The notes under the pieces: model-generated | Seen by the model: only the letters and a program-made list of their open reading frames with translations | Told to the model about the DNA's origin: nothing | Databases searched by the model: none | Shown: positions 1,234-3,848 of the stretch, piece after piece | How the letters are laid out: each line of letters begins with the position of its first letter | How positions within the stretch are numbered: the stretch's first letter is position 1 | Made by a program: the position numbers and the translations under genes | From: a virus | Lineage: Duplodnaviria > Heunggongvirae > Uroviricota > Caudoviricetes | Direction: 5' to 3' (one strand) | DNA: 6,992 nt | IMG/VR virus record: IMGVR_UViG_2778260997_000016 | Span: 1-6,992 of that record

Positions 1234-2211
1234 TTACATTCCTCCCAAGGGATTAAACCTCACCGCATCCTGCAGGTAATCCGGCGCAAGATGGGCATAA
1301 ATCATCGTTGTCTGAATCTTTGCGTGCCCCAGAATTTTCTGGAGCGTCAGAATATTGCCGCCGTTCATCATGAAATGACTGGCGAAGGTGTGGCGCAGCG
1401 CATGAACAGCCTGGCCGTCAGGAACATCAGGTGCGACCGTTTTGATGACATCGCGAACCAATGGATAATCCAGCGTCGGAAACACCAGTTTCCCGCCCCG
1501 TTTTTTGATCTTTTCAAACAGGCTTTCAGAAATAGGAACGGTACGGTTTTTGCTGTTCTTCGTTTTTGAAAAAGTGATTCGACAATGAAGAACACGGCGC
1601 TGCTCCAGTGCCGCTACCTCGCCCCATCGCGCCCCGGTCGACAGAAGGATTTCGACAGCCAGCCGTTCATCGGGATTTTCAGCCAGTGCATCCAGCAACT
1701 GAACACATTCAGACTTACTCAGATATCCCATTTCGCGCTCGTTAACCTTCATTCCTTTAAGGCCTTGAACGGGGTTATCGTTAAGAAAATGGCCGGATGA
1801 GATGAGTGCGGTAAACATCGCGCTTAACGCCCCAATCTCTCGATTTATGGTGCTGGGCTGTATCCCCTGCTCTATCCTGGACACACGTAGCTCGGTGAGC
1901 ATCGTTGTATTAAGTTTATGCACGCACGGGTCATCCATTGCCTCACTCAAGCGCAGCAATTTAAGGCGCGTGTTATGCCCTGACTTCATTAGCTGACCGT
2001 GGTATTTCCACCACAAGTCAATAAGCACTGACAGCGGACGGCGATCAATGGAGTTTCCTTTCCACTCATTGTTATGCTGTTGCGCCAGCACCCACCGCTC
2101 ATATAAAACTGCATCCGATTTCGTTTTAAATTTTTTACGAATGCGTTTGCCTTTACGCCCCTCCGGGCGCATGTCAAGAAGATATCCTCCCGGAATTGAT
2201 TTTATGCTCAT
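1234..2211 (-). CDS. int: Tyrosine recombinase, P2-family phage integrase (326 aa)
   Basis: Translation from the ATG at 2209..2211 begins MSIKSIPGGYLLDMRPEGRKGKRIRKKF, typical of P2-like Int N-termini. The C-terminal catalytic region has HALRHTFASH and GHAKIQTTMIYAHL, consistent with the R..HxxR..Y signature. The listed ORF extends to 2361 only as open frame overlapping the repressor 3' end; that extension is rejected. Confidence 0.9.
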   Translation of the reverse strand: MSIKSIPGGYLLDMRPEGRKGKRIRKKFKTKSDAVLYERWVLAQQHNNEWKGNSIDRRPLSVLIDLWWKYHGQLMKSGHNTRLKLLRLSEAMDDPCVHKLNTTMLTELRVSRIEQGIQPSTINREIGALSAMFTALISSGHFLNDNPVQGLKGMKVNEREMGYLSKSECVQLLDALAENPDERLAVEILLSTGARWGEVAALEQRRVLHCRITFSKTKNSKNRTVPISESLFEKIKKRGGKLVFPTLDYPLVRDVIKTVAPDVPDGQAVHALRHTFASHFMMNGGNILTLQKILGHAKIQTTMIYAHLAPDYLQDAVRFNPLGGM

Positions 2212-2260
2212 TCGTGAAACCCCAGCGTTACAAGACCACCATGCCCCCAGCGCTCCATGA

Positions 2261-2569
2261 TTAGCCGGGCTGTGTGCCAGTCTTGCGGGGTTTTTGAGAA
2301 GGCGATGTGCTTTTTGGCCCATCAGGGGAGAGAGACGGACTGATCTGCCCAGCAGCCTCATTTGTTTTTCCCGTCATAAGCCAATTCATGTACTTAAAAA
2401 AGCGAGGGTGATTAACAATCTTGATAAGCACTTCGCCCCCTATGTTTTCAATCCGCCCCGTTTCATAACGACGCAAAGTGCCGATAGGCACATCAATCAG
2501 GCCGCAAAATTCTTCGCGCGTTAAATCCTCTGATTCACGAATCACTCTAATTTTTTCACCGATAAGCAT
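2261..2569 (-). CDS. C: Immunity repressor, P2 C-type (102 aa from ATG at 2567..2569)
   Basis: Translation MLIGEKIRVIRESEDLTREEFCGLIDVPIGTLRRYETGR with a Ser/Pro/Gln-rich tail resembles the P2 C repressor as I recall it. An AGGA Shine-Dalgarno sits 9 nt upstream of the ATG. The listed ORF start at 2605 is a GTG that would lie inside the operator palindrome region. The gene is divergent from the rightward early operon and directly upstream of int. Confidence 0.8.
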   Translation of the reverse strand: MLIGEKIRVIRESEDLTREEFCGLIDVPIGTLRRYETGRIENIGGEVLIKIVNHPRFFKYMNWLMTGKTNEAAGQISPSLSPDGPKSTSPSQKPRKTGTQPG

Positions 2570-2665
2570 TGACAGTGTTCCTATAAGTACACTAAGCTTG
2601 CGCACAAGGTGTACTTATAAGTACACCAGATCACAAACAACCACAGATAGCGCAGGTTATCACAC
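2570..2665. promoter_or_regulatory. Divergent immunity switch region (early rightward and repressor leftward promoters) with operator-like repeats
   Basis: Perfect 20-bp palindrome GGTGTACTTATAAGTACACC at 2608..2627. The 11-mer TATAAGTACAC occurs as a direct repeat at 2582..2592 and 2616..2626. A consensus TTGACA hexamer lies at 2569..2574. Exact -10 elements could not be assigned with confidence. Confidence 0.6.
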
Positions 2666-2944
2666 ATGGCAAAAGTCCTGAACACACACGAACAGGCAGA
2701 CTTTGAGCGTTTAGCAGCGTTCTATCCCTACCGCGATGAGCATGGGTTACCAGTACTTGAAGAAAGCCTGAAAGATTACGCAAAGCGTACCAACCAAGCT
2801 GTTAACACAGTGAAAAGACAGGCTGACAGAGGTTCAATTCCCATCAACCAGGATGAAAAGAACTCAAGACGCACAGTAAATCTCTTCGCTCTTTTCCTGA
2901 AAACAATCAGGAGCGCAGAAAAATACGTGCAGATGACAAAATAA
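2666..2944 (+). CDS. Cox/Apl-position small early protein (92 aa), putative excisionase/switch regulator
   Basis: First gene of the rightward operon, immediately after the switch region, which is where cox (P2) or apl (186) sits. ATG at 2666, stop TAA at 2942..2944. Function assigned by position only; no sequence motif was confirmed. Confidence 0.55.
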   Translation: MAKVLNTHEQADFERLAAFYPYRDEHGLPVLEESLKDYAKRTNQAVNTVKRQADRGSIPINQDEKNSRRTVNLFALFLKTIRSAEKYVQMTK

Positions 2945-2958
2945 CGAGGTGTCATTTT

Positions 2959-3297
2959 ATGCTGAAGCAACGCCGTAATTTTCGTACCGGAACAGAACGC
3001 CACGCTAACCGTTTCACTACCAGTGCATCACGCAGCAACATCCGCTACAGCCTGAGTGATACACACGCAACGCCGGATGGCTACCCAGTAAAACAAATCG
3101 GCGAGCACGCCTGGCTGATTGAGAAAGCTGGAATCGTGATCCACAAATGCCCACGCAATCCGTTTACCGGAAACCGCATTTTTGCATTGAGCTGTGGCGA
3201 CAATCAGTTCGGGCAGGATTTCACATTATACGAAGCACTTCGCACGGTTGATCGTCTGCTTCGCGGGCAAAGTTTTATTAAACAGGCTGATTTATAA
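2959..3297 (+). CDS. Hypothetical early protein (112 aa)
   Basis: ATG at 2959 with GAGGTG Shine-Dalgarno at 2946..2951 (7-nt spacing). Same strand and tight spacing as the rest of the early operon. Confidence 0.6.
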   Translation: MLKQRRNFRTGTERHANRFTTSASRSNIRYSLSDTHATPDGYPVKQIGEHAWLIEKAGIVIHKCPRNPFTGNRIFALSCGDNQFGQDFTLYEALRTVDRLLRGQSFIKQADL

Positions 3298-3307
3298 CAG
3301 GTGCTTT

Positions 3308-3622
3308 ATGACCAAAAACCATGCACAAGGTGTATTTATCCGTTTTATTGATTTTCGCGGTGAACTGTTATTACGTGCATCCGCTATTGACGGAGTGACT
3401 CCGGCGGGTAAAAACGGAGCCGACGAAGCCACTTACGTTTATCTGAACGGCACGCGACTGCTTGTGGAACTTCCTACCAGACCGTACGAGAAATCATTAG
3501 CGAAGCTGAAAAGGCACGCCAAGTTAATGGCGATGAACCCTATATCGAAATTATTTGTATGGATTCAGAAGCTGAAATACAGAAAGCAGATTAAAGGGTG
3601 TTGCAATGGACAAAGAATATAA
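3308..3622 (+). CDS. Hypothetical early protein (104 aa as written); 3' part may be frameshifted
   Basis: ATG at 3308 preceded by AGGTG. The listed ORF start at 3194 would overlap the upstream gene and is rejected. The 3' third uses AGA/AGG/ATA codons, while the overlapping frame (3481..3594) reads TVREIISEAEKARQVNGDEPYIEIICMDSEAEIQKAD with common codons; see findings. Confidence 0.45.
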   Translation: MTKNHAQGVFIRFIDFRGELLLRASAIDGVTPAGKNGADEATYVYLNGTRLLVELPTRPYEKSLAKLKRHAKLMAMNPISKLFVWIQKLKYRKQIKGCCNGQRI

Positions 3623-3848
3623 AACACTCATCAACAAAGCACTTGAGCGTTTTTATTTTCGCTTAAGTGCATCAGGTACTCATGCTGAACGTGCAGCCCG
3701 TGACTCATTAACCAGGGCAATCCGGAGTCTGTATGACGTGGCTTTTTACGCTGATGATCTGGATGCACTTAACGAACTTTCCGAGCTGATCTGTGCCGCA
3801 GAATGCGGGGAGCATATTGAACCGTATAAGCTGGGGAATATTGCATGA
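3606..3848 (+). CDS. Hypothetical early protein (80 aa)
   Basis: ATG at 3606 with an AGGGTG-like Shine-Dalgarno upstream. Its stop TGA (3846..3848) overlaps the next ATG (3845..3847). Confidence 0.6.
   Translation: MDKEYKTLINKALERFYFRLSASGTHAERAARDSLTRAIRSLYDVAFYADDLDALNELSELICAAECGEHIEPYKLGNIA

Follow-up and report, generated by a model that had tools for sequence, protein, structure and literature searches.

Positions 2569-2627 of the window, by which we mean the whole stretch of 6,992 nucleotides that was analyzed, quite probably belong to a lysis-lysogeny switch of the P2 type (C/Cox), as its early promoter Pe and its operators O1 and O2 in the geometry of phage WPhi, where one symmetric dimer of the repressor C would sit on each site and the two dimers would jointly block Pe. 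This reading is built on the homology of the repressor, the positional equivalence of the elements, their conservation among related loci and the co-inheritance of the sites with C. The layout of the operator is ordinary, and its sites are symmetric, unlike the non-symmetric ones of the model phages P2 and WPhi.

The regulators and their prophage

The 102-aa repressor is a homolog of P2 C. Its residues 3-98 match the P2 C structures (PDB 2xcj/2l49) with E=2.5e-15, the protein matches phrog_147 (5.7e-30), and it shares 40% identity with canonical P2 C (E=3e-23) and 38% with WPhi C; the best repressor match among sequenced phages is 52% identical. The gene on the opposite strand encodes a 92-aa protein that we call Cox-like from three lines of evidence, namely a match to phrog_575, 'Cox-like excisionase and repressor' (1.1e-7), a short BLASTP match to the helix-turn-helix (HTH) of P2 Cox (E=6e-5), and an AF2 model (pLDDT 81.9) whose best geometric match in the PDB is P2 Cox (4LHF, probability 1.00, rmsd 2.4 Å over 61 columns), but with a weak E-value (E=0.09). 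For this protein, Pfam gave no match and the PDB no sequence match.

The gene order is also that of an int-C / cox-like arrangement, with C as the first gene of a leftward operon and int as the next; the early genes on the opposite side start with a wHTH gene of the Cox type. The integrase start was set at an internal ATG (Met51 of a 375-aa ORF), which gives about the length of a 324-aa RefSeq homolog. The earlier note, made from the letters of the sequence, had called the region a compact immunity switch, and this description is borne out by a P2-family prophage in which the repressor is a P2 C homolog and a Cox-like gene lies opposite. In Escherichia coli O55:H7 CB9615, the element adjoins btuC and comprises int, an HTH repressor, a divergent 92-aa gene, early genes, a gpA-type replication endonuclease, and P2-type late genes.

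Among 5426 complete E. coli genomes, 229 match the interval 2200-3000, including CB9615 and O157:H7 FRIK strains. The whole switch is found in 119 of these complete genomes (~2%), and another ~113 match only from ~2632 rightward, that is, on the Cox side. When the switch DNA was compared by blastn with 50,697 phage records, no genuine match emerged, so the search turned up no cultured phage with this type of immunity.

Compared with P2 and WPhi, the early region is a mosaic. Its early-operon genes include DUF4761 (1e-68) and DUF4754 (1.4e-54), at 2959-3297 and 3606-3848 of the window, and not the P2 orf78/B set. To the left of int, two overlapping minus-strand cargo ORFs (193-747 and 731-1231) encode a coiled-coil protein of 184 aa that has LKGELK-type repeats and is hydrophobic at its C-terminus, and a 166-aa protein with CxxC pairs. 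Searches of these two ORFs with Pfam and PADLOC returned only coiled-coil noise or weak Zn-ribbon matches, and CB9615 has other cargo at this position.

Layout of the switch

The elements of the switch are listed in Table 1. A consensus promoter and terminator scan of 2300-2900 called nothing, neither Pe nor Pc, and Pe was placed by homology instead; the assignment of the -35, O1, -10 and O2 in 2569-2627 follows from their positional match to WPhi and to the annotated P2. The candidate -10 is weak, matching at 3/6 positions, with an 18-nt spacer. TTGACA had been read in the earlier note as a -35 hexamer overlapping the repressor start codon, and the same arrangement is found in the annotated P2, in the WPhi Pe constructs and in the 39 classes of related loci described below.

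Table 1. Genes and predicted elements of the switch, with their positions in the window.
Feature	Position	Strand	Basis and remarks
Tyrosine integrase	1234..2211	-	Pfam Int_N 2.1e-28, Phage_integrase 4e-20; annotated integrase in CB9615; second gene of the leftward lysogenic operon
Immunity repressor, P2 C homolog, 102 aa	2261..2569 (stop codon included)	-	Recognition helix at about residues 28-38, PIGTLRRYETG
Pe -35, TTGACA	2569..2574	+	T2569 common to the C start codon (CAT 2569..2567 = minus-strand ATG); P2/WPhi position
O1 (predicted), imperfect dyad GTGTTCCTA/TAAGTACAC, 7/9	2575..2592	.	Fills the 18-nt Pe -35/-10 spacer; equivalent in position to WPhi O1
Probable C Shine-Dalgarno, AGGA	2579..2582	-	9 nt before ATG; minus strand ..TTATAGGAACACTGTCA-ATG
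Candidate Pe -10, TAAGCT (TAnnnT)	2593..2598	+	18 nt past the -35; predicted start ~2604-2606
O2 (predicted), perfect palindrome GGTGTACTTA/TAAGTACACC	2608..2627	.	~+3 to +23 of Pe; family O2 position, GGW...WCC ends
Hypervariable pentamer, C-module/Cox-module junction	2628..2632	.	Six variants among otherwise identical loci
Cox-module DNA: ACAAACAACCACAGA (2633-2647), AGGTTATCACA (2654-2664, including the cox SD AGG)	2633..2664	.	Invariant across C classes sharing the Cox type
Cox-like winged-helix protein, 92 aa	2666..2944	+	First gene of the early operon

The left arm of O1 may have a second use. The two bases that break the symmetry of O1 (GTGTtCcTA) would create the AGGA of the C gene on the other strand, and O1 is probably imperfect because this arm also encodes the C ribosome-binding site.

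With the Pe -35 directly at the start codon of C, only the region to its right is left for Pc. The mutually exclusive divergent promoters proposed at first are at odds with P2 (annotated) and WPhi (82-nt transcript overlap), in which Pe and Pc are convergent and face each other; by homology, the promoters would be convergent here as well. Two weak minus-strand candidates for Pc can be picked out by eye, TTCAGG(2682..2677)-17-TAACCT(2659..2654) and TTGCCA(2672..2667)-17-TATCTG(2649..2644). The TATAAG within O2 was also considered as a Pc -10 and was rejected, as it has no usable -35.

Two dyad sites in the spacer

The positions given in the earlier note for the palindrome (2608-2627), for TATAAGTACAC (2582-2592) and for TTGACA (2569-2574) are all three exact. 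The palindrome, GGTGTACTTATAAGTACACC, can be read directly from the sequence as 20 bp in two perfect arms (10+10), and no other perfect palindrome in the window has arms of 6 nt or longer. Somewhere in the 7 kb, an arm of at least 10 arose in 9/500 dinucleotide shuffles, which makes the palindrome alone only modestly significant (p ~0.02).

The 11-mer half-site TATAAGTACAC is present at 2582-2592 and at 2616-2626 as perfect direct copies. Its recurrence 34 bp upstream had been noticed before and stands, but the repeat was under-described, since a whole 18-mer recurs. In a repeat search, GTGTTCCTATAAGTACAC (2575-2592) and GTGTACTTATAAGTACAC (2609-2626) are identical at 16/18 positions, with starts 34 bp apart, and each of them is an inverted repeat in its own right. 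Overall, the half-site has three perfect copies and one copy with two mismatches (2575-2585, minus strand), and with these four half-sites the region consists of two dyad-symmetric sites rather than of a palindrome and a stray half-site. Both O1 and O2 are composed of outer arms GTGTAC and an AT-rich centre TTATAA.

With up to two mismatches allowed, the half-site has six matches against 0.81 expected, and at least six were reached in 0/200 shuffles. The 18-mer, with up to three mismatches, has exactly two copies in the prophage with its flanks (40.8 kb), where 0.00 would be expected, and both fall in the repressor/cox spacer of 96 nt. Distal operator copies, in the style of 186 or of lambda looping, were sought across the same 40.8 kb and none was found.

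The palindrome might also be read mainly at the RNA level, as a hairpin of 8 bp with a 4-nt loop that would stand at the very start of the Pe transcript, and as its antisense in the Pc transcript, and would act on stability or translation, the DNA symmetry being secondary. Folding of the RNA of 2603-2665 does form the O2 hairpin, at -17.7 kcal/mol and z = -6.6. Nevertheless, any DNA palindrome folds in this way, O1 has the same sequence although it lies upstream of the predicted start, and the O2 of WPhi, whose operator function is proven, occupies this position and has no hairpin potential (4/9 dyad). The sequence also co-varies with the repressor helix, as shown below, and we consider a mainly RNA-level role improbable. 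A hairpin role could coexist with operator function.

Comparison with known switches

The published WPhi Pe/operator region reads TTGACA-GTAACC[TATTGGTGAC]T-TATATT-...-[TATTGGTGAC] (PMC1904263; the genome agrees), and the window aligns to it as TTGACA-GTGTTCC[TATAAGTACAC]-TAAGCT-...-[TATAAGTACAC]. The WPhi Pe with its C operators O1 and O2 is attributed to Liu & Haggard-Ljungquist 1999 where that work is cited in PMC1904263 and PMC1904268. As in WPhi, TTGACA lies beside the C start codon, O1 would fall in the -35/-10 spacer and O2 past the start, with 34 bp between their centres, the repressor is a small HTH protein of the C type, and the early gene is divergent from C. The components themselves differ, with 38% identity between the C proteins, unrelated site sequences, Cox proteins without detectable similarity, and a C-cox spacer of 96 nt here versus 152 nt in WPhi. 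The sites also differ in symmetry, since the WPhi half-sites are 10-bp direct repeats whose dyads score 7/9 at O1 and 4/9 at O2, compared to 7/9 at O1 and 10/10 at O2 here.

P2 has in common with the window a homologous repressor, a -35 over the C start codon, two operators around the Pe -10 (annotated record), and a Cox-type partner. Its sites, however, are non-palindromic direct repeats of 8 bp, 22 bp apart, whereas those of the window are dyads of 18-20 bp, 34 bp apart. In P2 Hy dis, the C direct repeats are 8 bp long and 26 bp apart, and in WPhi they are 10 bp long and 34 bp apart; the repeats of P2 and WPhi flank the Pe -10 (PMC1904268). WPhi C is able to bind a single 'half-site' (PMC1904263), unlike P2 C, which is unable to bind a single site (PMC1904263, PMC1904268).

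The class of NC_041848 ('Escherichia phage P2', strain T22) shows the same skeleton as the window, the same 34-bp spacing, and a perfect palindromic O2, GGAACCTATATAGGTTCC, but its site sequence and its recognition helix (PLSTLKKYEGG) differ, and its C is about 46% identical. The record (NC_041848.1, locus 1365-1500, L083 in our survey) is named P2 and does not have P2 immunity; its C starts with MKLSEKIK, and its O2 is an 18-bp palindrome 34 bp from O1. L-413C, R18C, and several Peduovirus records have the same score to the C of the window (45.9%, 96 bits), suggesting that they have a C protein in common with this record. In the literature, we found no operator studies on this class or on that of the window.

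Phage 186 belongs to the P2 phage family, and its CI binds inverted repeats at the early promoter. Nevertheless, CI has 196 aa in two domains, forms a wheel of dimers and uses distal sites, and 186 has a CII establishment function (PMC1904263), while the repressor of the window has 102 aa and one HTH domain, and there are no distal sites in the 40.8 kb, unlike in this CI/Apl/CII switch. In its most likely working mode, the repressor would rather resemble C.Esp1396I and the lambdoid 434 and P22 c2 repressors, which bind as symmetric HTH dimers to palindromes whose centres are AT-rich; the likeness meant here is one of mode rather than of sequence family. C.Esp1396I, whose structure is similar to that of P2 C, places one dimer on each of two directly repeated palindromes (PMC2995052). 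Its sites are 15 bp apart, with dimer-dimer salt bridges (PMC2995052), compared to 34 bp here.

Comparative survey and module exchange

With the -35 as the anchor, 223 related loci collected from IMG/VR yielded 39 usable Pe/operator classes; L036 and L159, which were mis-anchored, and five loci without a TTGACA anchor were left out. The -35 hexamer is present in all of the 39 classes, in one of them as TTGATA, and the spacer that follows has 18 nt, or 17 nt in the WPhi group. In most of them, a -10 of the TAnnnT type is found at the same offset, such as TATATT, TAAATT, TAAACT or CATAAT. The paired sites are 30-37 bp apart, and 31-34 bp in most classes; in class L055, the site pair is not clear.

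L033 and L035 are two diverged relatives that belong to the same class as the window and provide a footprint. The C of L035 is 67% identical to that of the window, with an identical recognition helix, and here the -35 is kept at 6/6 positions, O1 at 17/18 and O2 at 20/20, compared to 4/9 in the inter-site spacer and 9/20 in the next 20 nt. When L033 is included, O1 is kept at 16-17/18 and O2 at 19/20 and 20/20, and the spacer and downstream DNA diverge. The Cox-like protein of L035 is diverged (27/65), and its C helix 3 is the same as in the window. The reverse combination is found in L055, L056, L061 and L063, where the Cox-like protein is 86-96% identical, C helix 3 is another one, and the best O2 match is 10-11/20. 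This natural module swap indicates that the palindromes belong to C and not to Cox.

These loci also bear on the hybrid operator suggested in the earlier note, in which the palindrome or the direct repeat would serve one regulator and the other arrangement, or a separate site, would serve the Cox-like protein, one half-site being present in both arrangements. The proposal finds no support, as the region holds two copies of one dyad and the sites track the repressor in module swaps: four loci share the Cox-like protein and lack the palindrome, and L035 has identical sites despite its diverged Cox. Moreover, Apl, the 186 counterpart of Cox, binds direct repeats one helical turn apart, and not 18-bp dyads (PMC7498355), and a separate Cox-linked DNA module is found at 2633-2664. 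We therefore regard a hybrid operator as very improbable, the least probable of the readings considered here.

The Cox-linked module runs from ~2633 to the cox ATG (ACAAAyArCCACAGA ... AGGTTAyCACA) and is kept wherever this Cox type occurs, whatever the C class. Its blocks within 2633-2664 are absent where Cox differs (L035, L053). From these comparisons, 2628-2632 is the joint at which a module with C, Pe and the operators recombines with a Cox module, and the latter probably holds the Cox operator and Pc, with 2633-2664 as the candidate region. The RNA fold of 2603-2665 also predicts a second hairpin, of 6 bp (GAUAGC...GGUUAUC), at 2646-2661 of the window, directly before the cox start and overlapping its Shine-Dalgarno.

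Dyad symmetry across the family

Over the 39 classes, the mean dyad score is 5.28/9 for O1, versus a null of 3.89, and 6.13/9 for O2, versus a null of 4.13. The O2 dyad reaches at least 7/9 in 14 classes and is perfect, within the survey, only in the class of the window and in that of NC_041848. The motif GGW-N(11-14)-WCC is found at the O2 position in 25/39 classes, versus 0 in a shifted control zone, and the mapped 10-mer of WPhi itself sits within a GGW...WCC 18-mer. O1 and O2 are mutually inverted in 8 classes, and the direct orientation is clearly better in only 3, including WPhi.

Some of the IMG/VR classes (L124, L130, L132, L142, L143, L204, L208, L213) have sites that are internally asymmetric and mutually inverted, ~10-60 nt past TTGACA, for example TTAATGAC ... 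GTCATTAA. In the literature examined, we found no description of such an inverted pair for P2-type switches, and a literature search for palindromic operators in P2-type C switches also found none.

According to the P2-style reading, C would recognize only the direct 11-mer TATAAGTACAC (2582-2592, 2616-2626) with one HTH per dimer, and the left arms would be incidental or have another use. This would follow the models for P2, P2 Hy dis and WPhi, with non-palindromic direct repeats and one specific and one non-specific HTH per dimer, and it is consistent with the 11-mers being perfect in both sites and the left arm of O1 being degenerate. We nevertheless find it unlikely. L033 and L035 keep the left arm of O2 perfectly although the spacer beside it has diverged, dyad symmetry occurs in many independent classes, the sites of 8 classes are inverted and not direct, and the two mismatches of O1 are accounted for by the overlapping ribosome-binding site.

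The operator copies of the window are not non-palindromic direct repeats, as O2 is a perfect 10+10 palindrome and O1 scores 7/9. The comparison suggests that non-palindromic direct repeats describe P2 and WPhi rather than define the family. Given the dyad survey, it is simplest to take each site as a full binding site for a dimer, with this locus as the fully symmetric extreme. A broader proposal, to which we give even chances, is that the 'non-palindromic direct repeat' rule for P2-type C is an artefact of the few phages studied. The 'half-sites' would then be pseudo-dyads of 17-20 bp (GGW...WCC), each for one symmetric dimer, the two sites could be direct, inverted or fully symmetric, and the class of the window and the T22 class would be the perfectly symmetric extreme. 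If this is true, the operator would be a clean substrate for the question of how the symmetric P2 C dimer reads DNA, left open by the crystal structure of 2010.

Proposed operation of the switch

In a lysogen, the C repressor, which is a dimer in P2 and WPhi, would fill both O1 and O2, as its homology and the position, conservation and co-inheritance of the sites suggest. Occupancy of O1 would stop RNA polymerase from binding, and occupancy of O2 would keep the polymerase from making its downstream contacts or from leaving the promoter; judging by WPhi and P2, the Pe spacer and positions +3 to +23 would be occluded. With both operators occupied, the Cox-like gene and the replication genes would stay off. 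In WPhi and P2, operator mutations relieve repression (PMC1904268, PMC1904263). The Cox-like protein would most likely act on the separate module at 2633-2664, as its co-inheritance with this DNA suggests, and Pc, judging from P2 and WPhi, is probably there too, firing leftward towards Pe.

Most likely, each site would take a symmetric dimer whose two HTH units read equivalent arms, and a whole operator would take two dimers. The crystal structure of P2 C shows a symmetric dimer like those of palindrome binders, which was noted as a puzzle, and it was proposed that one dimer binds each 'half-site' with one HTH specific and the other non-specific (PMC2995052). Several points count against the proposed reading of the region. 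The -10 is weak and the consensus scan called no promoter; the 34-bp spacing corresponds to ~3.2 helical turns, which would put the two dimers on slightly different faces of the DNA; fusion assays of P2 and WPhi C in vivo showed no higher-order oligomers without DNA; and, under the published asymmetric paradigm, the direct 11-mer alone might matter.

Immunity class and significance

We take the switch to be of the known P2 type and its immunity class to be new, as judged by comparison with the sequences of WPhi (class III) and UTI89 (class IX), and the locus may equal another of classes I-VIII or X. Classes I-VII were reportedly defined by Karlsson et al. in 2006. The locus falls outside the WPhi class III, where C identity of at least about 95% is expected, with its C identity of 38% and an operator unlike TATTGGTGAC.

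The analysis assigns a likely function to the repressor/cox spacer of a prophage that is present in ~2% of complete E. coli genomes, O55:H7 and O157:H7 among them, and points to an immunity specificity without a close counterpart among sequenced phages. It also locates, at 2628-2632, the point where C and Cox modules recombine. For work on P2, a natural and perfectly symmetric operator, together with the survey, offers a handle on the long-standing question of recognition by the symmetric C dimer; outside this field, a repressor on a palindrome is a conventional arrangement.

The class of the UTI89 prophage PhiECO5 (class IX, Nilsson 2011) differs from that of the window as well, with a C that is 40% identical and another C-cox spacer. 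PhiECO5 (3383-3485, L227) has the same early genes (DUF4761, DUF4754, MarR), another C of 113 aa, and a 173-aa 'Cox family' protein, and its O2 is an 8/9 palindrome, CTTCACCAC/ATGGTGAAG.
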